In this document: positions 1 to 12,053 of the stretch, piece after piece
Numbering within the stretch: the stretch's first letter is position 1
Layout: the number at the start of each line of letters is the position of its first letter
From: a virus
UHGV virus genome: UHGV-1561195
Reading direction: 5' to 3' (one strand)
DNA length: 12,053 nucleotides
Translations under genes and position numbers: made by a program
Notes under the pieces: model-generated
What the model saw: the letters and a program-made list of their open reading frames with translations, nothing else
Told to the model about the DNA's origin: nothing
Database searches by the model: none

Positions 1-16
1 CGATAGGACGGTAGAA

Positions 17-457
17 ATGCAGAAATATATTTTCAGTGCTGATAAAAATGCGTTTTTCCCTGTGGAGCTTAAAATTGCTTATCAGGAAGCGGGGAAATGG
101 CCTGATGATGGAATCGAAATTGACGACACTGCTGCCGCTGAATTTATGAAGGAAGCACCAGAAGGAAAGTACAGAGGTGTCATCGACGGAATGCCAGCAT
201 GGATTGATATTCCACCACCAACACATGAAGAACAGATTGCAGCAGCTGAATTGCAAAAGCAGCAATTGATTAATAAGGCCAACGCATACATAAACAGTAA
301 GCAATGGCCTGGTAAAGCAGCTATTGGTCGTCTGAAAGGTGAGGAACTGGCGCAATATAATTTGTGGCTGGATTATCTGGACGCACTGGAACTGGTCGAT
401 ACTTCCGGTGCTCCAGATATTGAATGGCCTACGCCTCCGGCAGTTCAGGCCAGATGA
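17..457 (+). CDS. Tail fiber assembly protein, alternative copy (Tfa'/U'-like) inside the invertible segment
   Basis: ATG at 17-19. C-terminus LWLDYLDALELVDTSGAPDIEWPTPP matches the conserved tail-fiber-assembly C-terminal motif as I recall it. Lies on the opposite strand to the rest of the operon and converges on the other tfa gene, overlapping it by 29 bp, as in Mu U/U' and e14 tfaP/tfaE. Confidence 0.75.
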   Translation: MQKYIFSADKNAFFPVELKIAYQEAGKWPDDGIEIDDTAAAEFMKEAPEGKYRGVIDGMPAWIDIPPPTHEEQIAAAELQKQQLINKANAYINSKQWPGKAAIGRLKGEELAQYNLWLDYLDALELVDTSGAPDIEWPTPPAVQAR

Positions 458-1022
458 CATCCGGCGCGGTGCTGGTATCTGTTGCCGTCACCGCGTCAAT
501 GTAATCCAGCACGGCGTTTAGTCGGGTGGTTTCTGTTTGCGTCAGCTTCCGTCCGGCCTGCAATTTCAGTTGAATAAGACTAATGGACGCCATTGCAGCA
601 TTAATCAGCGACTGGCGCTGTGTTTCTGCCGCTTCTACTGCAGCACCGTGCTGTGCCTCAGTATCTGTCACCCATTTTTCCCCATCCCATTTATCGTATG
701 GCGTTAACGGTGAAAGCGTGACATAACCGTCTTTGATGGCACCGATATAATCCACTGTAACGGCAGCGCCATTTTCGGTTGAGTAAACAGTCTCATGGCG
801 ATGGTCTTCTTCATGGTGCCATCCCTTCCCCGTAAATACTGCCACTTTCCCCGAAATGTTTTCGCCCGGGTCAATATAAGTGGAACAAGCGGGCATACTT
901 ACACCAGTATTAATATATTCATCAGACCAACCCGTATATTCATACGTTACTGCATCATAATAAAAACAACGCATATCACCCGGTACTGTAGCCAGCCCAT
1001 TTTCATCAAAAACAGGTTTCAT
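429..1022 (-). CDS. Tail fiber assembly protein (Tfa/U-like)
   Basis: 197 aa. N-terminus [11 protein letters not shown]...EYTGWSDEYINTGVSMPACSTYIDP and C-terminus LDYIDAVTATDTSTAPDVIWPELP are typical of the Tfa family. Its ATG overlaps the tail-fiber stop (TAATG), indicating translational coupling. Confidence 0.8.
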   Translation of the reverse strand: MKPVFDENGLATVPGDMRCFYYDAVTYEYTGWSDEYINTGVSMPACSTYIDPGENISGKVAVFTGKGWHHEEDHRHETVYSTENGAAVTVDYIGAIKDGYVTLSPLTPYDKWDGEKWVTDTEAQHGAAVEAAETQRQSLINAAMASISLIQLKLQAGRKLTQTETTRLNAVLDYIDAVTATDTSTAPDVIWPELPEA

Positions 1023-1768
1023 TATTTAGCCCTCACCAGAAAGTTAAATGCGATGTTACGTGGCCTGACGGCAATAAAATTCACACCATCACCCACTGAA
1101 TTACTGGTGTAATGGTATCGAGAGAAACCCGGCTCGTGTGCTGATATTCCATCGTGATTAGCAATCGAATGGCCGGAGCCCTCTGGATAATTACCTCCAA
1201 ATTGCGATAAAGATGTTGCTGCCTGCCAGCTTAATAATGCTCGCCCACTATCCACCCCGCACCCATCATCCCAGATACGAATGAAATCACCCCGTGCGTC
1301 AGGTAATACCAGCGACGGAAACACTTTCGCCAGCACAGGGTAATCAGTGGCAGAAAATTTCGCTCCGTTGAACTTCAAAAACACCATACCGGACCAGCTG
1401 TTGATTACGGTATTTGGCATTGCGGCGGAGGGCCAGAAGAACGGAACTCCAATAGCCGGAGCACCTTCTCCCAAACCAAGGTTTTCGAGAGCCGTTTGCA
1501 CAGTGCCATCCGATTTGATATCGCCAAACGGATTCTTGCGGCTTAACAGCAGCGCACGAAGCGCGGTAAGCAACTGATCGTGCCGCGCCTTCTCCAGACT
1601 GGCACCGGAGGCCTCCACCACGCTGCAAAGTTCTTCCTGCAACATGTCAAAGTAGTCATCATCCAAATCGGTGGCAGGCGTACCGGTCTGGGGGTTACCA
1701 CGGGTAAAACCGTTCTTACCCGCGCCGAACTTATCCTTCTGCGCGGTTTTCGTGTCTATACGATGCAT
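1022..1768 (-). CDS. Tail fiber protein, short, with phage tail collar domain; constant N-terminal part (about aa 1-96) joined to an invertible variable C-terminal part
   Basis: 248 aa. The segment [49 protein letters not shown] matches the tail collar domain pattern (YP.LF...LPDLRG.F.R.WD.G.G.D.GRAL). GGAG-type ribosome-binding site 7-8 nt upstream of the ATG at 1768. A Hin/Gin-type crossover site lies inside the gene at 1466-1491. Confidence 0.8.
1466..1491. other. Candidate DNA invertase crossover site (gix/pix/hix-like, 26 bp): TTCTCCCAAACC-AA-GGTTTTCGAGAG
   Basis: Two 12-bp imperfect inverted half-sites flank a central AA dinucleotide. Compare hixL TTCTTGAAAACC-AA-GGTTTTTGATAA and gixL TTCCTGTAAACC-GA-GGTTTTGGATAA, both recalled from memory. 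It sits inside the tail-fiber gene at codons 93-101, where the constant/variable junction is expected. Confidence 0.6.
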
Positions 1769-1771
1769 GGA

Positions 1772-2356
1772 TTACTCCGGATATTTAAAAATTACGTAAG
1801 TATGCGACGGGCAGAGTTTGTTAAGCACACATTCGACAACGGTGTCGCCCCAGATACGCAGTGCGGAATCACAGGGATCGCCACATGTCATCCAGGTGGT
1901 GTTGGTGGCGGCTGGCATGTTGACCTGCCAGTAATACCGCCATTCAGGCGCGTTCACCGCGTCAGTACAGGCCGATGAGCAGGTGAACGTGCTTTTGTCG
2001 TATCGCGTGATGGTGGCATCCGGTCTGCCCAGGGCAGCAAGCTGTGCAAGATAAAAATCCTCGTTGATGCCGCCCGCCAGATTAACCTTCGCATCCAGTC
2101 GTTGCTGACGCTGGCGAAGGGTCTGTGTCCCTGCGGGAATACATTCATCCGGCAGGCCGCACAGACGCTCCCAGCGATTTATCAGTTCGGTGGTGGTGCG
2201 CGGATCCAGCTCCCGCATCAGGGCATCCGCACGCTGATGAATGCGGGTTAATGACGGTGCCGCACCGGCAATCGCCGGATCGCTGGCTGACCACGCCGGA
2301 CCGGGGGGCAACAGTGCCGACAACAGACGGATGTAATCATCGTTTGTCACGTCCAT
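1772..2356 (-). CDS. Mu gp48-like / DUF2313 (YmfQ-like) tail or baseplate protein
   Basis: 194 aa. Occupies the position between the J-like baseplate gene and the tail fiber, as Mu gp48 and e14 ymfQ do. Overlaps the upstream J-like gene by 10 nt. Family assignment is from memory. Confidence 0.7.
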
Positions 2357-3405
2357 GAAATCGTCCCCAGTACCGCCAGTTCATTTTTTGCAATGGAGAT
2401 ATTGTCTGCCGGTGCAAGCAACTGATGGCTGTATTCCCCGTTCGCACCGGAAATCGCCTCACTGATACGCGACACCTTCAGTTCTCCCTGCGGATAACCA
2501 TCACGCAGCAGGAACGAACGCAACTCGGCGGTGATGGCAGCCCGTATTTCCGGTGTGTCCGGCGTCACGCGGATATGAAAATCCACTTTATGCGCCACCG
2601 GCCTGAATACATACAAATCAGAGCCTGCCACCGGGGCCAGTGGCTCAATGTGTTGTCTTGCCGCCGTTTCCGTTGATTCTTCCGGAATGGGATTAATCAG
2701 GTCACTGCCGGCAATCATCACACCGACAGTCCCCGTTCCCATCCAGTGGCGGTATGTCCATGCACGGGTAATGCCGGGCACTTCTTTAGCCCAGACAACA
2801 TAGTCCCCGTCAGCCCCGCCCTGAGGCGTCCAGTAATACCGCTCAATGACGCGGGCGCGCCACGTTTCCAGATCTTCAGTATCGAATCCGCCAGTCAGGG
2901 TATCTGCAACACCGGAAGACGGCAGACCATTCACCGGCGTGACCAGGATTAATGCCGTACCGTCGTCAGCGTTACCGACCGCGCCTGCACTTGAGCAAGT
3001 GATCGGCACGCGCAGGACACCACCGGAGCTGGTTGCATCAGCAGTTGCCGTGTACTGAACCAGGTCATCGCGCTGAATCACGCTCCCGGCAGTCACCTTC
3101 AGGCCATCGCTGACACCTCCCCAGCGCATATACCCGCTGGCAGCCGTGGCCCCCTTGCGCGGACACCGTTTCATCGCAGCATGTCGCGCCAGCCAGGACT
3201 CATCGCACAGGTCAGGCAGCATGTTCATTGCCAGATAATCGATGTAACCGTAAACCGTATGCAGCGCCGCCGCATACACCTTTGCCCGCACGTCTTCATC
3301 CATGCGCCGGAGCGTGTCGCTGACGTCCAGCCTGGCGAATAAATCGTTACGGAGCATACTGATATTTTCTGCCAGCGTCGGGCGCTGAAATTCACTGTCC
3401 GCCAT
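2347..3405 (-). CDS. Baseplate J-like protein (Mu gp47 / P2 gpJ family)
   Basis: 352 aa. Its size and its position after the gp46-like gene match Mu gp47, and the sequence resembles the Baseplate_J family as recalled. ATG at 3405. Confidence 0.8.
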
Positions 3406-3820
3406 GCGTTATCGCACTCCACAGATCATCAAAAGAAATCATTACCGGTCCGTCACGACGCCAGAGAGTGATACTGTTACCCAGTTCATTAATCCCGGTG
3501 CGGCGGATATCCAGATCAATACGGGACACCACGCCATCATCAATCATCCATTGCAGGCATTCGCGGATATACCCCCTTACCGTCTGCACCAGCTGATTGG
3601 TCAGTTTGCTGCGCTGAAGCAGCCACAGTCGGGAGCCGTAACGGTCATTCTGTACCGCAGGCCAGGTATCCCCCCACCATCCCATCGGGACGTCGGCGTT
3701 GTCATCAGGCTCCGCCCGCCGCCAGGTAAACAGGGAAATCACCACGGCGCGGGTCAGCGGATCCAGCGGTGCGCTGGCGCAGGTGCGTTTACCGTTCACC
3801 GTCAGCCACAGTTCCATCAT
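3392..3820 (-). CDS. Mu gp46-like baseplate protein (gp25/W-like)
   Basis: 142 aa. Position and size match Mu gp46. ATG overlaps the upstream stop (ATGA). Confidence 0.7.
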   Translation of the reverse strand: MMELWLTVNGKRTCASAPLDPLTRAVVISLFTWRRAEPDDNADVPMGWWGDTWPAVQNDRYGSRLWLLQRSKLTNQLVQTVRGYIRECLQWMIDDGVVSRIDLDIRRTGINELGNSITLWRRDGPVMISFDDLWSAITHGGQ

Positions 3821-4365
3821 GCCTCCATCGCTTTATCCGGTTTGTCGGTGTTACTGCCCTGACCGTTCTCTCTGTGACGATGCCCGTTATAGGCAAGCCG
3901 CATCGCTGACATGGTGGTGCCGCCGGAGTCGCACAGGTCTTTCACCTGTCCTGTCACTTCCAGGTCCATTTCAAAACGTGCTTCAGGTGCATTGCGAAAC
4001 GTGATCGTTTTACCTGCACCGTCCACCACGATCCCCTCCCGGGTCAGCGTCACGGACTGCCCCTGATCGTCATAGACAGCCACCTCACCCGTCTGCAGCC
4101 CTTTCAGCCGGTAGCGACGGTCCGACACCGTAACAACCACCGCATGAGAACGGTCGCCATCCGGAAACAACACCACCGCTTCCGCACCGCTGTTTGCCCT
4201 TGCGGTAAAACCGTAGGGTTCAAGATGTTCAACCCCGGCTTTGGGTTCACCGGCAATCAGGGACACATCCACGGTCTGACATTTCGTGGCGGCACTGATG
4301 CTTTTTACCACGGCCCGCCCAATCAGGCCGAGGAGTTGTCGCTGCATGGCTTCAATCGTCCTCAT
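3817..4365 (-). CDS. Baseplate assembly/spike protein (Mu gp45 / gpV-like)
   Basis: 182 aa. Position and size match Mu gp45. ATG at 4365 overlaps the hub-gene stop by 1 nt. Confidence 0.75.
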   Translation of the reverse strand: MRTIEAMQRQLLGLIGRAVVKSISAATKCQTVDVSLIAGEPKAGVEHLEPYGFTARANSGAEAVVLFPDGDRSHAVVVTVSDRRYRLKGLQTGEVAVYDDQGQSVTLTREGIVVDGAGKTITFRNAPEARFEMDLEVTGQVKDLCDSGGTTMSAMRLAYNGHRHRENGQGSNTDKPDKAMEA

Positions 4366-5444
4366 CAGAACGGGTCCTCCTGTACTCTGGCTTTTTTCTT
4401 TTTCCGCGCGCCGGGGGCTTCGGGTTCAGGCAGATAAGCATCAGGCGGGCCGACACGGATTTCCGTCAGGGTGCCGTTCTGGTCCTGAGTAAACGTGACT
4501 TCCGAGACAAGCAGTTCGGTATTGTCGAAACCACAGACCGGATCGAAGACAATCACCCGCTGGTTGGGCTGCCACAGCGTACCGTTACCCTGTCGCCAGC
4601 CCTGCACCACATAGGTGGTTTCATCCGTCCGCGCCGCCCGTTGTCGGGCTTCAAAGTCAGCACGGGCAATACAGCCTGCCCCCGTAGCCTGCCCTGTCTG
4701 CCTGATATACATCGGACGGTAACGGGCAATAAATGCGTCCTCTGTGCGGGCCCGCAGCGCGGTGGTGGTGGCCTCACCGAAATCATCGTCGTTTCCGGCA
4801 CGCTGCCCCGCCACCTGGTAAACTGAAAACCGCTCCCGGATACTCTTCTCCGTATCACAGGAAAGGATGTTTTCCCCAAGTACCAGCGCGGTATGTGCCC
4901 GCGTTGAGCCAATACAACCAATCACCAGCCTGCCGTGCGGGTCGTCATAAGCCAGCGCCTGCTGCTGACCGAGTATTTTGTTGATCACCTCGATCACCGT
5001 TTCACCGTGATCAGGCTGGACATCCGGAATAACACCCGACGGCGCACCGCTGTTCACCACCTCAATGCCGAAAGGCGCAGCAAGCGCCTGCGCAATCTGT
5101 ACCAGCGATCGTCCGTTAAATTGTGTCGGTTCGGCTGCACAATCAATCAGGTCAGCGGTCAGACTGCGTCCGGCAATACCGGTGCTGACCGAACGGGCAT
5201 CGTAACGAACGGGCGTCGCCTCCACCCAGCCGGTGATCACCAGCTCATCACCAATCAGCACTTCCACTTTTGAACCGTTTTTAATGCGCGGCTGAAGCGT
5301 GGTGATACCCTCATCTCCCGGCCACTGGCGGGTGATCTCCACACTGAAATCCCGCGCCAGCCGTTCAATACCGGCACCGATGCGCACCGATGTCCAGCCA
5401 TTCCACTCCCGGCCATTTACCCGTAGCGTGACGTTATCGTTCAT
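4365..5444 (-). CDS. Baseplate hub / late control D-like protein (Mu gp44, P2 gpD family)
   Basis: 359 aa. Follows the DNA circulation protein as in Mu. Basic C-terminal tail ARKKKKARVQEDPF. Translationally coupled to both neighbours. Confidence 0.75.
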   Translation of the reverse strand: MNDNVTLRVNGREWNGWTSVRIGAGIERLARDFSVEITRQWPGDEGITTLQPRIKNGSKVEVLIGDELVITGWVEATPVRYDARSVSTGIAGRSLTADLIDCAAEPTQFNGRSLVQIAQALAAPFGIEVVNSGAPSGVIPDVQPDHGETVIEVINKILGQQQALAYDDPHGRLVIGCIGSTRAHTALVLGENILSCDTEKSIRERFSVYQVAGQRAGNDDDFGEATTTALRARTEDAFIARYRPMYIRQTGQATGAGCIARADFEARQRAARTDETTYVVQGWRQGNGTLWQPNQRVIVFDPVCGFDNTELLVSEVTFTQDQNGTLTEIRVGPPDAYLPEPEAPGARKKKKARVQEDPF

Positions 5445-6817
5445 TGCACTGGCACCTTCAGAGGGATCACCGGCACAAAACCGGGATGCGTAATGGCATT
5501 ACGCCGGATAATGTCCGCGTCACGCGCCGCGTTATCAAACCAGGTCGCCGCCAGCACCAGCGCGGGTAAAACCTCATCCGGTGTGCGCTGAATGATCCGT
5601 GCAGACTGTTCAAGGCGCGTGTTGATATCCGCATTCAGATCTGCTTTCACCCGGCGCAGCGCCAGAAACAGCGCATCACTGGTTGTACGGGACAACTCCT
5701 TATCAATTGCCGTATTCAGTGTGTCGCGAATGTCGGTCAGTTCTTCCCACGTTGGCAGGTCAACCGTGTTTTTCACCGCCGGTGCATTGTTCAGTGCCGG
5801 ATGCGTGACAGAAGGCCAGCCGGTGCTCTGCGCGGGTGTTGTTGACTGCCCCACTGTGGCATTCTGCATCACCGCGGAAGTTGTTGGCGCAGGCAATCGT
5901 GTGACGGCATACGCCGCTTCGCTGATTGCGGTCGTACGAAGGGTGCTGGCAACCACGTTACGCTGCTGCGTCGCCGTGGCGGTGGTTTTACTGTCCGTTT
6001 TCCAGACGCCGCGCGGTTGCAGATCGCTGCCGAGGCTGACACCGGAAAGCGTTTTGATCATGGTGACCAGGTCGCTGGCGTTACCATAAAGGCGTTTCCC
6101 GGTACGCCACATTTTCTGCACCTGCTCAACGAAATTTTTGCCTGACGATGGCGGCGGCAGAAGTACCGAGATATCCCCCTGCAACAGCCTGGCAGCATCC
6201 GATACGGCAGAATCCACCACTTTCATCGTATCAGAAACATACCCCAGCATTATGCTGGCATTACCAATAACGTCGTTCTGCACAAAATCTGCCACGCCAT
6301 CGATACTGAAACCACTGAAGCTGTCACTGATGCAGTCATCCAGTGCAGAACAGGATGACATCAGCGTCTGCGCCGTCGCCGCACCTGAAGTGGGGTAAGA
6401 GAGTTCTCCCGCTTCGACAAACTTCAGGTCAAAGCGGACAATACGCCCTTCACTCTTCGATGTGCTGACCCGAACTTCCCCGTCAACACAGACTTTCAGC
6501 TCACCGTAAGTCGGATGGACAAGCGTGCCGGGACCGGGTTTATTCAGCGCTTCAATCAGGCGATCGCGCTGGTCAAAGCAGTCATCTCCCACCACATAAG
6601 CTGTGATGGACGGGCGGAAAGTGATTTTCCCCAGGTCTTCGGTATAGGGTTTGTCGCGGTTCGGGTATTCGTGTGTTTCCACACGGCGACCGGTTCCCGC
6701 ACTTTCTTCTTCAACCTTAAACGATACGCCGCGAAATGACGCGTCCTGAAGTCTGTCACGCCAGCCTGAAGACGACGAAAGTAATGAAGGTCGGGTGGGA
6801 AATGAGGATAAATCCAT
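5441..6817 (-). CDS. DNA circulation protein (Mu gp43/N-like)
   Basis: 458 aa. N-terminal region WRDRLQDASFRGVSFKVEEESAGTGRRVETHEYPNRDKPYTEDLG resembles the DNA_circ_N domain as recalled. GAGGT ribosome-binding site 8 nt upstream of the ATG at 6817. Confidence 0.8.
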   Translation of the reverse strand: MDLSSFPTRPSLLSSSSGWRDRLQDASFRGVSFKVEEESAGTGRRVETHEYPNRDKPYTEDLGKITFRPSITAYVVGDDCFDQRDRLIEALNKPGPGTLVHPTYGELKVCVDGEVRVSTSKSEGRIVRFDLKFVEAGELSYPTSGAATAQTLMSSCSALDDCISDSFSGFSIDGVADFVQNDVIGNASIMLGYVSDTMKVVDSAVSDAARLLQGDISVLLPPPSSGKNFVEQVQKMWRTGKRLYGNASDLVTMIKTLSGVSLGSDLQPRGVWKTDSKTTATATQQRNVVASTLRTTAISEAAYAVTRLPAPTTSAVMQNATVGQSTTPAQSTGWPSVTHPALNNAPAVKNTVDLPTWEELTDIRDTLNTAIDKELSRTTSDALFLALRRVKADLNADINTRLEQSARIIQRTPDEVLPALVLAATWFDNAARDADIIRRNAITHPGFVPVIPLKVPVQ

Positions 6818-6841
6818 AGACTGACCTCAAAAAGGACTGCG

Positions 6842-8749
6842 TTATCGTGGAAAACGAAAAGGGGAATACCCCACATCGTGCGTGATTTTCATCAGGGGAT
6901 CGGCTTTGTCCGGTACATCAATTATCTTCATACCTGGCGGAGCATTCTCGAACGTGACTTTCAGCTCGCTGTGCTGTGTCATGGAAGAAGATGGATTCAA
7001 CAGCGGAACATTGGGTTTGTACTGACTCAGGCTGGCCTGATATTGCTCGTACTCTTTACGATCAAAAAAAGGCGTCCAGTCTGAAGCCAGAAACAGCCCT
7101 TTATTATCCAGCCAGTTAACCGTATCTTCAGGAACAACACTTTCCAGAGTATCTTTAACCGGCTCATACATCAGGGTTCCCAGAAAACCATATACCCCGG
7201 CCTTCCCGATAAAGCCGCGGCCTTTCCCCATCAATCCCGTTTCTGCCGATACCTTCCCCAGCGTACGCATCTCTCTGGTCACTGCGGTAATGGATTTGGT
7301 AACGTCAGCAACCCATTTGGTTGCCATAAACAGGGCAATCGCTTTCAGAACAGTTTCCCATCCCCCCATCGCCTGCGCCGTTTCATCCATCACGTGCCAG
7401 ACTTTTTTTATGACAGGACCTACGGTTTCCCAGTTATCAATAATGAGGTAAGCGCCACCAACCAGAAGAGCAATCAGCCCCTTAGCAGGCGTCATATTCA
7501 TCACACCGCCGAGAACTTTCATAATTCTGGACAAAGAGCCTGCAGCGGCTCCCACCGTCAGTAAGGCCAGACCGATTTTAGCAATGGTCTTAACGAGCTC
7601 CGGGTTTTCACGGACAAACGTTCTCACTTCCTCAAGGAGCGGTTTTACCGCTTCAAGACCATCATTAACCTCAGGAAGAAACGTTTCCCCCAGCGTGGAA
7701 GAAATGGCATCAAGTTGATTTTGCAGAAGTAAAAGCTGGTTTTCCGTCGTCGCTGCCCTCGAAGCATATTCCTTCTGCATCGAACTGCCATACTGCTGGG
7801 AATCCGCAACCCGCCTGAAGTTGGTACGCAACAAATCAAGGTTAGTCAGCAGAGGTGCTATCGCGCCCAGAGACTCTTTCCCGAACAGGGCATTCAGCAC
7901 AGCTGCCTGTTTTTCTTTAGGCACTTTAGCCATCGCATCCAGTACAGACAGCATGGTGCCCCGGGCATCTTTCTGCATATCAGCAGCTAATTTCTTCGGA
8001 TTGATCCGCAGAAAACGCAATGCCTGTTTCTGCGATTTTGTCGCAGAATTTCCCGCGGTCAGGGAAAGCATGAAGTTCTTGATCCCTGTGGCGGCAATTT
8101 CTGACTCCACGCCCATCCCGGCAATGGTTGCCCCCATTGCCGCGATTTCGCCGGAAGCCACACCTGCAACACCACCTAAAGGACCAATACGCGTAACAAT
8201 ATCGGAGATTTTCTTCGCGTTCGCCGGGCCGGTATTACCAAGGTAGTTGATTTTGTCAGCCAGCCCGGCCACTTCATCCTGCGTCATATTAAACGCAGTA
8301 CGCCACTGGGCCATCATCTGCCCGGACTCTTCAGCCGTGGTATCAAAGGCCACGCCCATCTTCACCGCATCAGTGGCAAACTGCATCAGTTCATCACGTG
8401 CAATCCCGGCCTGACCACCCGCCGCCACGATTTCAGCGATACCTTCCGCCGACATAGGCAGTTCGGTTGACAGGTCACGCACCTGCTCCGTCATGGCCTT
8501 AAACGCATCCGGCGTATCCAGACCGTCCACCACTTTGCGGACATCAGCCATCTTCGATTCAAGGGTGATGGCTGATTTTACAGGGAGTACCAGTGCCCCC
8601 ATTATTGCAGTACCCGCCCCGGCAGCGCCCAGAGCAAGGCTGGAGACTTCTTTCTGAAATCCCTTAAGCTGACGCTGCATACCTTTAAGCGGGCCGGATA
8701 GCCTGTCAACGGCGGTGATGATGGCTTTCAGCTGAAAATTATCAGCCAT
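6842..8749 (-). CDS. Tail tape measure protein
   Basis: 635 aa, Ala/Gly-rich and predicted largely helical, with a hydrophobic segment (IAKIGLALLTVGAAAG). Sits after the chaperone gene. GAGGAG ribosome-binding site upstream of the ATG at 8749. Confidence 0.85.
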   Translation of the reverse strand: MADNFQLKAIITAVDRLSGPLKGMQRQLKGFQKEVSSLALGAAGAGTAIMGALVLPVKSAITLESKMADVRKVVDGLDTPDAFKAMTEQVRDLSTELPMSAEGIAEIVAAGGQAGIARDELMQFATDAVKMGVAFDTTAEESGQMMAQWRTAFNMTQDEVAGLADKINYLGNTGPANAKKISDIVTRIGPLGGVAGVASGEIAAMGATIAGMGVESEIAATGIKNFMLSLTAGNSATKSQKQALRFLRINPKKLAADMQKDARGTMLSVLDAMAKVPKEKQAAVLNALFGKESLGAIAPLLTNLDLLRTNFRRVADSQQYGSSMQKEYASRAATTENQLLLLQNQLDAISSTLGETFLPEVNDGLEAVKPLLEEVRTFVRENPELVKTIAKIGLALLTVGAAAGSLSRIMKVLGGVMNMTPAKGLIALLVGGAYLIIDNWETVGPVIKKVWHVMDETAQAMGGWETVLKAIALFMATKWVADVTKSITAVTREMRTLGKVSAETGLMGKGRGFIGKAGVYGFLGTLMYEPVKDTLESVVPEDTVNWLDNKGLFLASDWTPFFDRKEYEQYQASLSQYKPNVPLLNPSSSMTQHSELKVTFENAPPGMKIIDVPDKADPLMKITHDVGYSPFRFPR

Positions 8750-9157
8750 GCTTCATCTCCTCATTTATACGGACGGCCTCTGCCTCCAGATCAGCAAAGT
8801 GGGAAATAGCCGTCCGGCGAAGTTCAAGGGGGTTTAATTTCCAGAACCACGCGACATTGTAGAATCGCTTCCGGAGGTCTCTTCCGTCTCCAAGCCGGTA
8901 AAAAAACGCATTACAATCATGCCTGCCTTGAAAATATCCAGCTTCGTCATCTGCGCTGCAGACGAGCGCGGGATCCCGGCCAGAAGCGGGATATATTTCA
9001 GCGCCACCTGACTGTCCATTTTCATACCACCATCAGGCGAAACAGAGAAAGGGAACCCCAGCGCCTCAATCTCGTCATACGTAGGCTCACGTATTTCCAG
9101 CACATGCAGTGTTTCTTTGTGGGCGATGATCGGTTTTTTAAGTACAAGCTCAATCAC
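8742..9157 (-). CDS. Predicted -1 frameshift-extended tail chaperone (G-T / E+E'-like fusion product)
   Basis: After a -1 slip at T-TTT-TTT (8900-8906), the new frame stays open for 52 codons (YRLGDGRDLRKRFYNVAWFWKLNPLELRRTAISHFADLEAEAVRINEEMKHG) and stops at TGA 8742-8744, overlapping the tape-measure ATG at 8749. Translated by hand from the sequence. Confidence 0.45.
8834..9157 (-). CDS. Tail assembly chaperone (Mu gp41 / P2 gpE / lambda gpG-like), in-frame product
   Basis: 107 aa, acidic, located between tube and tape measure. GTG start at 9157 overlaps the tube stop (GTGA), with an AAGGGG ribosome-binding site upstream. Contains the slippery heptamer. Confidence 0.7.
   Translation of the reverse strand: MIELVLKKPIIAHKETLHVLEIREPTYDEIEALGFPFSVSPDGGMKMDSQVALKYIPLLAGIPRSSAAQMTKLDIFKAGMIVMRFFTGLETEETSGSDSTMSRGSGN
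8900..8906 (-). other. Slippery heptanucleotide T-TTT-TTT (X-XXY-YYZ), candidate programmed -1 ribosomal frameshift site
   Basis: Seven consecutive A on the plus strand at 8900-8906. In the chaperone reading frame this reads cgT TTT TTT acc. Confidence 0.5.
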
Positions 9158-9510
9158 TGGTAATCCCCTTCTTCACCGTGGAACTCAAGATCAACCGTGC
9201 CTTCTTCGGCATTATGGTTCGCTTCACCGTGCAGCCAGGCGGACGACAATACATAGACCTGACCGTTCGCCAGCTCGGCAGTGATGGTCATCTCATCAGA
9301 CGAGGTGATTTTGCTCACCGGAAAATTCTTCGGCACCTTGAAGGTCCCTTTGACATAAGGTGCACGGTGAGTTTCCTTGCGGTCCACTGAACCGTCCAGG
9401 CCGATGATGTCATCATTGACCGTCCTGTTCATGGGCACCTCAATGCCGCCGGTCAGCGATAGCTGCTGACCGTCAATTTTGAAATAACAGGTTCCCCCGA
9501 TACGGGCCAT
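9154..9510 (-). CDS. Tail tube protein (Mu gpM / P2 FII-like)
   Basis: 118 aa. Immediately follows the sheath-like ORF and precedes the chaperone. ATG at 9510 overlaps the upstream stop by 1 nt. Confidence 0.8.
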   Translation of the reverse strand: MARIGGTCYFKIDGQQLSLTGGIEVPMNRTVNDDIIGLDGSVDRKETHRAPYVKGTFKVPKNFPVSKITSSDEMTITAELANGQVYVLSSAWLHGEANHNAEEGTVDLEFHGEEGDYQ

Positions 9511-10793
9511 TATGCAGACTCCTCTGAATACTGAAGACGGAACTGGTTAACCACGGCAAAGACACGCAACTGGTTAACATAGTCAGGCGGGAACAGCGTG
9601 TTCAGGCGGTTCGGATCGCTGGCATCACGCTCCACAACCAGGTACTGCTTAAACAGTTCGTAGTTTTCCACGATCCCCGCACGCTCAAGCTGACGGTAGG
9701 TTGCCAGCAGTTCCCCTTTGATCACCGCCGGGGTGACAATCGCCTGACCGGGACCAAAGCGGGTACCGTCACTGGCAAGCTTGTGACGCCCGTACTTACT
9801 GGTAATGACGGATTTCAGTTTGCGCAGTACATACGCGCTGGTATGCAGCGTCTCACTGTCGAGGTAGCTGTTATCCGCAACCCCGTAAGCGTTTTTCCTG
9901 TACGTGGTGACATCACGCTGAATGCGCAGTACCCCACTTTCGACATACGCCGTTGCCACGCCATGAGACAGCAGGGTCTGTTGCTCGGTCATCGTGAACC
10001 GTTTCCCCTTCGGTGCAGGCAGCATACCCACCAGCTCACCGGTCTGCGTGGGACGTGCCGGATCGTTGCGAATAAACACCGCTGCGCGGGCGGTACGGCT
10101 TGCCGCCAGCTCGTCGGCTGGCGTCTGAGTGTCTTTTTCGTATCCCGCCAGGGTAATGTGCTGCTGGTTAAACTGGTCACCTGCGGTCACCAGTTCTGAC
10201 AGCGTGCCGATCTTTGCCGTATACACATGACCATACAGCTGACGCGCATAGCTCCAGCGACCGCTGGTATCGTTCATCTCGGTCAGCATGGGTGTGCGTT
10301 TACACATCAGTCGCGCCGGGCGAAAGACTTCCCACGCCTGTTTCTCTGTCGTGGCACCGGAATACACTTCCGCGCCAAACTCGTTATCACAGGCAAAACA
10401 ATACAGGGCAACACCGGCAGAGATTGCCGATTTGCCGTTCTTACGGGGGATTTCGGTATACACCTCCCGGAAGCGGCGCAGCCGGGAGCCTTTATTGACC
10501 CAGCCAAACGCGCAGCAGATCACAAAGAGCTGCCACGGCTCCAGCGTGATGGGCATCCTCTTGAATGCCCACTCACCCTTGGTGTGCGGCAACAGCTGAA
10601 TAAATTTGGCGGCCCGTTCAGCCAGGTCCTTGTCGAAGCGGTAACGAAACGACTTACTTTTTTCCGCCATCAGATCATCAAGATGGCGCTGGCAGGCCTG
10701 AATCACAAACTGGCAGGCCACAATCTTTCCGCGAACGACATCCCGGGCATACTGATTGGCAGCATTTACGTTGGGGTAAGATTTCCGGCTCAT
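9510..10793 (-). CDS. Chimeric ORF: N-terminal about 165 aa of large terminase (Terminase_1 ATPase fragment with Walker A PRKNGKS) fused in frame to about 260 aa of tail sheath C-terminus; probable deletion-scar pseudogene
   Basis: N-terminus [24 protein letters not shown]...FGW...[18 protein letters not shown]...[24 protein letters not shown] matches lambdoid TerL N-termini as recalled. The C-terminal part ([15 protein letters not shown]...[26 protein letters not shown]) is sheath-like and sits directly upstream of the tube gene. TerL-like sequence stops near aa 165 (about nt 10290). Confidence 0.6.
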
Positions 10794-11284
10794 GATTCGA
10801 TAATTTTCAGAAACGGGTTAGTGGCTTTCTTCTGCCCCGCCAGGCCAATCAGACGCTGGCGGCTGCTGGGGTCGAGTCCGAGCATTGCCCCCGTACTGCT
10901 CATCTCGGACTCCTGTTCTTTTTTGGCGGTCAGCTCAGGATTTTTGACCATACCGCCCATTGCACCGGTGATGGTGTTGCCCTGTCTGGCAATATTTTTC
11001 ACGGCACGTCGCCAGAACTCATAGGCCACACACCACCGCTCAAGCACCGCGAGGTCAGTCACGCACAGCAGGCCCTGACCGCAGAGTTCTTTGGTTGTCA
11101 GTTGCCACATGATCGTGGCGAGAGGGAGATCTTCTTCAGCGAACCACTCCGGTGGCTCAACACCTTTGATGGGCGTAAAAACAGGTTCATCTTTATTCAG
11201 GGCTCGCTTGCCGGGGTTTCCGGCCAGCGCCTTGCGCGCCGTTGGCTTGGGGCGACGCCCGGAACGCCCCGCCGTTCCAGCCAT
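10790..11284 (-). CDS. Terminase small subunit, P27 family
   Basis: From the ATG at 11284 the protein begins [36 protein letters not shown], matching the P27-family TerS N-terminus as recalled. AGGAG lies 8 nt upstream. The ORF track's longer start at 11293 is a GTG and adds only three codons. Confidence 0.8.
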
Positions 11285-11293
11285 ATGCGGCAC

Positions 11294-11409
11294 TCCTGGT
11301 TAAATTTCATTTTTCGCGGGTATAAAAAAACGATGGGGCGGGCAGTCCGGAAGACGTCAGGTCACAGGGATTTGACCCGCCCCTCCCCTCAGGAAGTTGA
11401 GAATCATTA
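11294..11409. promoter_or_regulatory. HNH-TerS intergenic region with GC-rich inverted repeat; candidate cos / terminase recognition region
   Basis: GGGGCGGG at 11335-11342 and CCCGCCCC at 11376-11383 form a perfect 8-bp inverted repeat with a 33-nt spacer. The spacer contains a GACGTC palindrome and a GGTCA/TGACC repeat. HK97-like phages place cos between the HNH and terminase genes. Confidence 0.3.
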
Positions 11410-11760
11410 TCACTTCAACCGTTCACGGGCCGTCTTCGCCTTATGACACGGCCAGCACAGACTCTGCAGATTACTGTCGGCATCAGTGCCGCCATGTGCT
11501 TTAGGGATGATGTGGTCAACGGTTTTCGCCTCGCGCACCACACCGGCACGCAAACACAAGTGACACAGGCCTTTGTCACGCTTGAGCACACGTTCACGGA
11601 TAACATCCCATTTCGCACCATAACCGCGCTGGTGTCGGGACTGGCCTGGCTTGTATTGCTTCCAGCCTTCGCTTTTGTGGCTTTCGCAATAGCCTGACGG
11701 GTCTGTGGTGGTATTACGGCAACCTCGAGCACGGCAGGCTTTCGGGATACGAAGAGGCAC
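11410..11760 (-). CDS. HNH endonuclease (phage terminase-associated HNH)
   Basis: HNH motif CHLCLRAGVVREAKTVDHIIPKAHGGTDADSNLQSLCWPCH. Cys-rich N-terminal region KACRARGC...GYCESH. Likely starts at GTG 11758-11760 (AAGGT 6 nt upstream), which coincides with the composition boundary. The ORF track's ATG at 11817 would add 19 codons of AT-rich sequence with no ribosome-binding site. Confidence 0.75.
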   Translation of the reverse strand: MPLRIPKACRARGCRNTTTDPSGYCESHKSEGWKQYKPGQSRHQRGYGAKWDVIRERVLKRDKGLCHLCLRAGVVREAKTVDHIIPKAHGGTDADSNLQSLCWPCHKAKTARERLK

Positions 11761-11836
11761 TTTATTACCTTGATTATTTATAGGGTTAAAATAAGTATAT
11801 TCACAAAAAACATTCATTGATTATGAGAATCAAAAA

Positions 11837-12053
11837 TCAGGAAATAATACCCTCCGATTTTCCTTTGCTTATGTAAACTAATTTATCATTACCTAATGAT
11901 AACACTTGTTGAAATTGTGGCTTTATTTTTATGCATCCTCCCAAAAAATAAGCAAAACTACTTACCCCTCCAATAACATTATAAGGATAATCTACTGACA
12001 TAGATAAAACAGTTCCCGCCAGACTAAATATTTGTGAAAAATCGAACTCAAAG
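11837..12053 (-). CDS. 3' end of an unidentified AT-rich ORF entering from the right edge (hypothetical protein, partial)
   Basis: Minus-strand frame is open from the window edge to TGA at 11837-11839 and encodes ...FEFDFSQIFSLAGTVLSMSVDYPYNVIGGVSSFAYFLGGCIKIKPQFQQVLSLGNDKLVYISKGKSEGIIS. Codon usage is strongly AT-biased, unlike the phage operon. No motif recognised. Confidence 0.3.
   Translation of the reverse strand, partial: FEFDFSQIFSLAGTVLSMSVDYPYNVIGGVSSFAYFLGGCIKIKPQFQQVLSLGNDKLVYISKGKSEGIIS

Follow-up and report, generated by a model that had tools for sequence, protein, structure and literature searches.

At the right end of the 12,053-nucleotide stretch of DNA analyzed here (the window), phage genes give way to AT-rich DNA holding the end of an open reading frame, which raises the question of what this gene is, how it came to lie beside the packaging genes and what it does. 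The GC content of positions 11761-12053 is 0.287, compared with 0.547 +/- 0.043 for all 293-nt intervals of positions 1-11760 (z = -6.1), among which the lowest value is 0.41. Between the adjoining 100-nt blocks the GC content drops from 0.57 (11661-11760) to 0.24 (11761-11860). The switch, placed at about 11761 by an earlier note made from the sequence, thus falls exactly at 11760/11761. The same note had read a minus-strand frame that stays open to the window edge, and this reading was confirmed: the frame at 11837-12052 holds 71 sense codons without a break, ends with a TGA at 11837-11839 and encodes within it the peptide VIGGVSSFAYFLGGCIKI. Because a stop is expected about every 12 codons at 29% GC, such a frame is unlikely to have arisen by chance; hand arithmetic gives p of about 0.002 per frame for an open frame of 71-72 codons.

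We searched 5426 complete E. coli genomes by megablast with window 11300-12053 as the query. The part containing the HNH endonuclease gene was matched in 1181 genomes and the entire query in only 32. The AT-rich DNA is therefore carried by 2.7% of the sibling prophages, and about 97% have the same lysis and packaging genes without it. Homology with about 1150 other E. coli prophages stops at window 11742-11767. In an alignment of nine prophages the break coincides with the HNH start codon (11758-11760), with a perfect match before it and nothing shared beyond, in agreement with the compositional switch. The HNH gene (11410-11760, minus strand, 116 aa), identified by Pfam (HNH, E 1e-15), by the RefSeq annotation of the best-matching prophage and by the nine-prophage alignment, is the conserved proximal border of the variable DNA. 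A longer, ATG-started HNH ORF of 135 aa (11410-11817) was rejected as an artefact, the true start being the GTG at 11758-11760, where eight siblings have ATG. The start codon is GTG in both the window and its best match and ATG in the other eight aligned siblings, and this change lies exactly at the junction with the AT-rich DNA.

The best match, NZ_LR890198.1, is 99.7% identical to the window and is called L001 here; an L001 position equals the window position plus 3701. By extending the window rightwards along L001, as the earlier note had proposed, we recovered the full ORF and its neighbours. The AT-rich cassette measures 1012 bp (L001 15462-16473, window 11761 to about 12772, with the first 293 bp inside the window) and is AT-rich throughout. 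Its limits, defined by GC content and by the break and resumption of homology, are the HNH start codon on one side and the stop codon of Rz (spanin) on the other. The gene that it carries spans 864 bp (L001 15538-16401), runs in the same direction as the late operon and encodes a protein of 287 aa annotated in RefSeq as "DUF6236 family protein". Its 3' end in the window (11837-12053, minus strand) comprises codons 217-287 and the TGA, and the translated fragment is identical to the C-terminal 71 residues of the L001 protein.

Upstream of the gene are 72 nt with a GGAG Shine-Dalgarno sequence. A 10/12 sigma-70-like site lies at L001 16465-16438, but such sites number 2 as compared with 4.3 expected in shuffled sequence. 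Downstream, a 76-nt AT-rich spacer (11761-11836, minus strand) separates the DUF6236 stop from the HNH start and supplies the HNH ribosome-binding region; its sequence is different in every sibling of the nine-prophage alignment. The spacer has no terminator-like site (RNA fold -5.9 kcal/mol, z +0.9). A search of the 1012-bp cassette found no second credible ORF, no Rfam match, and no bounding repeats or transposon hallmarks. When compared with homologues at 47-72% identity, the gene has a dN/dS of 0.06-0.14. The start codon, the Shine-Dalgarno sequence and this ratio together indicate a real gene under selection, so the earlier concern that the frame might not continue as a bona fide gene beyond the window can be set aside. 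The E. coli copies among the matches listed are all annotated as intact.

The window prophage is an E. coli prophage with an HK97-type head and a Mu-like tail, and all of its genes in the window are on the minus strand. Read in the direction of transcription, L001 has the Q antiterminator followed by an AT-rich island of two genes; the lysis genes (holin, GH24 endolysin, Rz), DUF6236 and HNH come next, and then the small (P27 type) and large terminases, portal, protease, HK97-type capsid and Mu-like tail genes. The genes for immunity, replication and the integrase are located about 9-15 kb upstream. The expectation that this position would hold lysis genes or morons, as in lambdoid phages, was borne out: holin, GH24 endolysin and Rz lie directly beyond the DUF6236 gene, and morons at this position are textbook.

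Two further features of this prophage were observed. Outside the window, the two genes between Q and holin (L001 17900-19500) form a second AT-rich island, which has a GC content of 0.25-0.31 and encodes a 214-aa Transgly-domain protein and a 175-aa protein without a Pfam match. The corresponding interval of siblings carries a gene for a DNA methyltransferase or a large metallophosphoesterase, or one with the annotation "ATP-dependent nuclease", "nucleoid-associated protein" or "ATP-binding protein"; it therefore looks like another accessory or defence hotspot. Within the window, the ORF at 9510-10793 (427 aa) is an in-frame fusion of the N-terminus of the large terminase (TerL ATPase) to the C-terminal two-thirds of the tail sheath, with the junction at about 10280-10290 and about 7 nt of microhomology. 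Compared with the intact L001, about 7.4 kb is missing, namely what remains of the terminase gene, the genes for portal, protease, capsid and connectors, and the N-terminus of the sheath. No instance of the junction turned up among the 5426 complete E. coli genomes. With this loss and a junction found in no complete genome, the window prophage is either defective or mis-assembled (an assembly chimera).

The earlier note had suggested comparing what occupies this slot in related prophages. The interval between Rz and HNH proved hypervariable, taking at least eight different forms across ten sibling prophages. It is nearly empty in one (L002). Two siblings have iss there, which encodes a Bor-like serum-survival lipoprotein, and another two have a 169-aa ORF. 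The other fillings are an ORF of 64 aa, an ORF of 83 aa, a pair of plus-strand ORFs, a DUF2513 gene with a small ORF, and a GrlR-family gene. A moron is defined operationally by its absence between the same flanking genes in relatives, by a base composition distinct from the surrounding phage genes, and by its own promoter upstream and terminator downstream, both of which classical morons carry. The DUF6236 cassette is absent between the same genes in its relatives (L002 nearly empty, eight siblings with unrelated genes). Its gene has a GC content of 0.34 and a GC3 of 0.23, compared with 0.47-0.60 and 0.43-0.69 for six neighbours, in line with the z of -6.1 at the window end. The cassette thus matches the definition, save that a terminator is absent from the spacer and that its own promoter is a consensus-level site only. 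The horizontal acquisition of a moron or accessory gene, which had been proposed from composition, is upheld by this absence from most siblings and by the GC3 difference. We conclude that the cassette is a horizontally exchanged single-gene moron with a conserved DUF6236 gene, and that it occupies a hypervariable slot with the lysis module on one side and the packaging module on the other.

Because no repeats flank the cassette, we infer that it was swapped in by recombination at the conserved flanks and not by transposition. Since the gene is co-oriented with the late operon and no terminator follows it, late transcripts must read through the cassette. The GC-richest stretch of the right end (0.62-0.63) is window 11100-11400, which contains the small terminase start and the 116 nt that separate this gene from HNH. 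The cos site of HK97-type phages is located between the HNH and small terminase genes, and by analogy the Rz-HNH slot of the window's phage probably also adjoins the packaging site.

The ORF that had not been recognized from the sequence is an already catalogued DUF and not something new. Its product matches Pfam PF19749 (DUF6236) with 109.7 bits against a cutoff of 26.2 (E 2e-31), over residues 24-227 and profile positions 74-266 of 324 only. The match to PHROG 23128 is full-length (E 5e-144; residues 1-285 on profile positions 1-288 of 288). The profile and structure work used the protein P0001, which is identical to the L001 protein at 286 of 287 residues. PF19749 was also matched by all 61 aligned homologues. 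NCBIfam, PADLOC and the PDB (phmmer and profile) gave nothing beyond Pfam's DUF6236 for the protein. PADLOC-DB v2 returned 0 families for it and chance-level matches only (E >= 0.013) for the 61 homologues, and a literature search found no papers on DUF6236, PF19749 or WP_021556491. An ordinary holin, endolysin or spanin, which the earlier note had kept as the alternative, is contradicted by the Pfam result, which is DUF6236 only. An endolysin or spanin identity was rejected in particular: Pfam gives no lysozyme, transglycosylase or Rz match, and separate GH24 and Rz genes lie upstream.

The family is large. A word-indexed search found 88 clusters, mostly from Enterobacteriaceae, and an exhaustive search with a profile yielded 1736 clusters (50% identity), of which 409 had E values below 1e-30. 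Nearly all of the 1736 are full-length (270-310 aa, about 285 aa). The genome matches include Flavobacterium, Winogradskyella, Pelagicoccus, a Paraclostridium MAG, Kordiimonadaceae and Aliivibrio. In the 61-sequence alignment the residues D40, W106, L136, P137, P139, F151, K152, R155, Y170 and D178 are invariant.

The AlphaFold model built from the same alignment (pLDDT 75, pTM 0.77) is tripartite. An alpha/beta domain predicted with confidence (residues 1-137, pLDDT about 80-94) is followed by a helical hairpin (residues 145-204), with the invariant Y170 and D178 in the hairpin and its loop, and then by C-terminal beta-strands that include a poorly defined stretch at 225-251. A fold search gave no significant match, the weak ones being generic Rossmann-like domains. 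Among these, CARF domains (Csm6, Cad1, Can1, Cam1) recurred, and the DUF6236 protein has no significant structural or sequence similarity that would place it in CARF. Because the CARF matches scored no better than PIN, PP-loop or cytidylyltransferase folds, CARF was rejected and the alpha/beta domain was left unclassified.

The hydrophobic, Gly-rich stretch that drew the earlier note's attention corresponds to V242-I259 (VIGGVSSFAYFLGGCIKI; 11924-11977, minus strand), a small-residue-rich segment. Its conservation holds, as the position of the segment is kept across the family, but it makes no convincing transmembrane helix here. The best 19-residue Kyte-Doolittle value is 1.25, with 1.3-1.9 in homologues and a conventional threshold of 1.6; on the Wimley-White octanol scale a hand calculation comes to about 0 kcal/mol, and AlphaFold shows part of the segment as beta-strands (pLDDT 34-74). 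As a membrane helix it is borderline at best, and a transmembrane or holin reading is unsupported for the L001 protein. By inspection the protein sequence contains no signal peptide or lipobox (N-terminus MERGVVFSACELLKTEDGKG), and the 287-aa product looks cytoplasmic.

We surveyed the neighbourhood of the gene at 97 loci. No neighbour or partner gene is conserved across them, which suggests that DUF6236 acts by itself or together with components of the host or the phage. The DUF6236 gene is AT-richer than its flanks at 93 of the 97 loci, by 11 GC points on average. The phage and prophage loci comprise 80 distinct architectures. A recognised lysis gene lies no more than four genes upstream in at least 42 of them, and a packaging gene no more than four genes downstream in at least 30. 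The same lysis-to-HNH position is taken by a Klebsiella homologue (47% identical) in prophages whose lysis and replication modules differ, and an Enterobacter paralogue (28-33% identical) follows the lysis genes of an unrelated phage type. Another position is after tail-fibre genes (L068, L070, L080). Distant homologues adjoin gpQ/gpP in phiCTX/P2-like prophages; the P2-type hotspot is bordered by gpA at its other end, and the ORF that was the candidate for it at these loci matched nothing in the phage collection. The gpQ-adjacent, cos-proximal P2 hotspot holds old, tin and tested single-protein defences (PMC9122126).

Other genes share the lysis-to-packaging interval in some of these phages. 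In an Enterobacter prophage (L013-L015, 6972-7976) a tyrosine-recombinase (Phage_integrase) gene lies directly downstream of the DUF6236 paralogue, an unusual mid-phage place for an integrase, between lysis and packaging genes. In many Enterobacter/Klebsiella-type viral contigs (L037-L050; examples are L043 7061-8518 and L055 8921-9514) proteins of 485 aa and 197 aa are encoded after DUF6236 and before the packaging genes. Neither matches Pfam, and their genes may be further cargo in the same slot.

Members of the family also occur outside phages. On chromosome II of Aliivibrio fischeri MJ11 (L103 1-14867) the DUF6236 homologue is a single cassette in an array that contains eleven copies of a 130-nt attC-like repeat, one directly after its stop (7865-7994) and others upstream (6274-6403, 6850-6971). 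It is accordingly a single ORF bounded by attC-like repeats, as in an integron cassette, an assignment judged from the repeats. The array also contains an AAA_15/AAA_21 ATPase and HNH pair, which we take to be Septu-like, as well as GNAT, NTP_transf_6 and duplicated CoiA_N cassettes. Integron cassettes have been reported to carry phage defences. A metagenomic homologue lies between metH and mutY with a Mrr_cat gene and AAA_14 ATPases, and a Flavobacteriaceae homologue (L024) is directly downstream of a complete SIR2-HerA system (E 1e-130, 1e-157).

Two Acinetobacter plasmids (L113 6934-8882 and L117 2934-4882) carry an identical homologue 20 nt downstream of a gene for a 346-aa protein that is annotated "HEPN domain" or "Abi family" and matches PADLOC PD-T4-5 (E 9e-10) and Pfam HEPN_RiboL-PSP. 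The plasmids have different backbones and flanks, yet they represent one lineage. The two genes may form a module in this Acinetobacter lineage only; as a general partner HEPN/Abi was rejected for this confinement. Other plasmid copies are near RelBE or an N-6 DNA methylase, and some chromosomal copies are among housekeeping genes. At 17 non-prophage loci, 10 of 117 neighbour proteins matched PADLOC, including SduA (5e-87) and PDC-S02 (1e-140), which is well above random genes if the yardstick is our own estimate of "a few percent", not a matched control.

From these results we infer, at somewhat short of an even chance, that the DUF6236 protein is a single-protein phage defence or exclusion factor that benefits the lysogen. 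The grounds are that the gene is solitary, has a foreign composition and a patchy distribution, travels on many mobile elements, occupies accessory hotspots, has defence genes as neighbours and encodes conserved polar residues. Of the possibilities first raised for an accessory gene here, namely toxin, immunity or defence, it is only the genomic context that suggests the last. The broader proposal, which we hold more tentatively, is that DUF6236 is a new defence or exclusion family whose fold is unlike any solved or viral-library structure, and which would have spread between bacteria in several guises: phage moron close to the packaging site, integron cassette, and cargo of plasmids or defence islands. 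In certain lineages it would cooperate with an Abi/HEPN RNase.

In the lysogen, the gene may be expressed from the sigma-70-like site that precedes it. If the protein is such a factor, its N-terminal Rossmann-like alpha/beta domain (D40, W106, LPxP 136-139, F151-K152-x-x-R155) would recognise either a ligand resembling a nucleotide or some component of the phage. The effector step would fall to the helical hairpin together with the hydrophobic beta/Gly-rich module at the C-terminus, possibly via oligomerisation or membrane perturbation. Because no structural or sequence relative is known, this division into sensor and effector is conjecture. The Gifsy-1 defence protein GiPD474 was considered and rejected, since it is an unrelated ATPase-domain protein encoded in the immunity region.

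Several observations stand against the defence reading. PADLOC models match none of the 61 family members, and iss/bor, the known occupant of the slot, is a serum-resistance factor. The two Acinetobacter plasmids count as one lineage, and there are copies with housekeeping neighbours. The promoter-like site is no more than chance would give, and the C-terminal segment of this protein is not convincing as a transmembrane helix.

The precedent of iss/bor leads to the rival that survives best, though we regard it as unlikely: a lysogenic-conversion factor unrelated to phages that alters host physiology, envelope or virulence. The same slot holds iss in two siblings and a GrlR-family regulator gene in another, the DUF6236 gene is AT-rich like many H-NS-controlled virulence genes, and the hosts include clinical and animal isolates. 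An envelope role is harder to reconcile with a protein that has neither a signal peptide nor a lipobox nor a convincing transmembrane helix. The presence of the family in marine Flavobacteriia, Verrucomicrobiota, Psychrobacter, Vibrio integrons and small plasmids argues against a role specific to host animals, and the recurrent neighbours are defence genes and not virulence genes.

The read-through of late transcripts, which must include a co-oriented gene without a terminator, would also suit an accessory of the lytic cycle expressed with the late operon, such as a modulator of lysis timing or DNA packaging. The recurrence of the gene between lysis and packaging modules in many unrelated phages fits this second alternative as well. 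We nevertheless give it a low probability, ranking it below lysogenic conversion, because about 97% of the siblings have the same lysis and packaging genes without it and one sibling has next to nothing in the slot. The modules for lysis and packaging that flank the gene vary among its carriers, and the family also occurs outside phages, as an integron cassette, on plasmids and as solitary chromosomal genes.

Patchy distribution, foreign composition and residence on many kinds of mobile element would also be expected of selfish or near-neutral cargo that benefits neither phage nor host, such as a hitch-hiker or the toxin of an addiction module. Against such cargo we find strong purifying selection (dN/dS 0.06-0.14), a full-length architecture kept over 1736 clusters in several phyla, and intact annotation of all the E. 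coli copies among the matches listed. An addiction module is further opposed by the lack of an adjacent antitoxin-like gene or second ORF in the cassette. We consider this third alternative improbable. Functions outside the readings named here take the remaining share, about a tenth. Finally, the idea that the AT-rich DNA is the junction of prophage and chromosome or an ordinary lysis gene (holin, endolysin, spanin), which drew on AT-rich DNA beside packaging genes and a hydrophobic stretch in the earlier note, is refuted, as L001 continues through a complete holin/GH24/Rz set just upstream, Q, replication and immunity genes to an integrase about 15 kb on and the protein is DUF6236 only in Pfam.

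If the DUF6236 protein is indeed a defence factor, a widespread single-gene system with an unassigned fold, present in 1736 clusters and several phyla, has been missed by current annotation tools, and the lysis-packaging slot of HK97-like and lambdoid prophages is a place to seek more defence genes, much as the cos-proximal hotspots of P2 and P4 have been mined for them. If it is not, a recombination hotspot has still been delimited to the nucleotide, from the Rz stop codon to the HNH start codon. As a candidate defence family, the cassette is well delimited and testable.

Three known systems can be compared with the cassette. The first is lambda bor and its E. coli counterpart iss, which occupies the same Rz-HNH slot in sibling prophages and is a single-gene insert like DUF6236. 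Iss is a 97-aa lipoprotein encoded on the opposite strand, whereas the DUF6236 protein has 287 aa, is encoded in the direction of the late operon and has no signal peptide or lipobox; the two proteins share no sequence similarity. The second is the set of morons of HK97-type phages, which reportedly include gp15, a superinfection exclusion factor (Juhala et al. 2000; Cumby et al. 2012). They have in common with the DUF6236 cassette an extra gene between genes that are adjacent in relatives, a deviant composition and an HK97-like prophage as carrier, and by analogy a role in protecting the lysogen is plausible in both. They differ in that the promoter is only a consensus-level match and the terminator is absent in the cassette, and the proteins are unrelated.

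The third is the cos-proximal hotspot of P2-like prophages. Rousset et al. 2022 describe single proteins of unknown biochemistry from the P2 hotspot, such as the DUF4238 system, that protect against phage (PMC9122126). DUF6236 does not appear to be among the systems tested there. Like the occupants of the P2-like hotspot, DUF6236 is single-gene cargo of unknown biochemistry, and its distant homologues lie beside the same gpQ gene.
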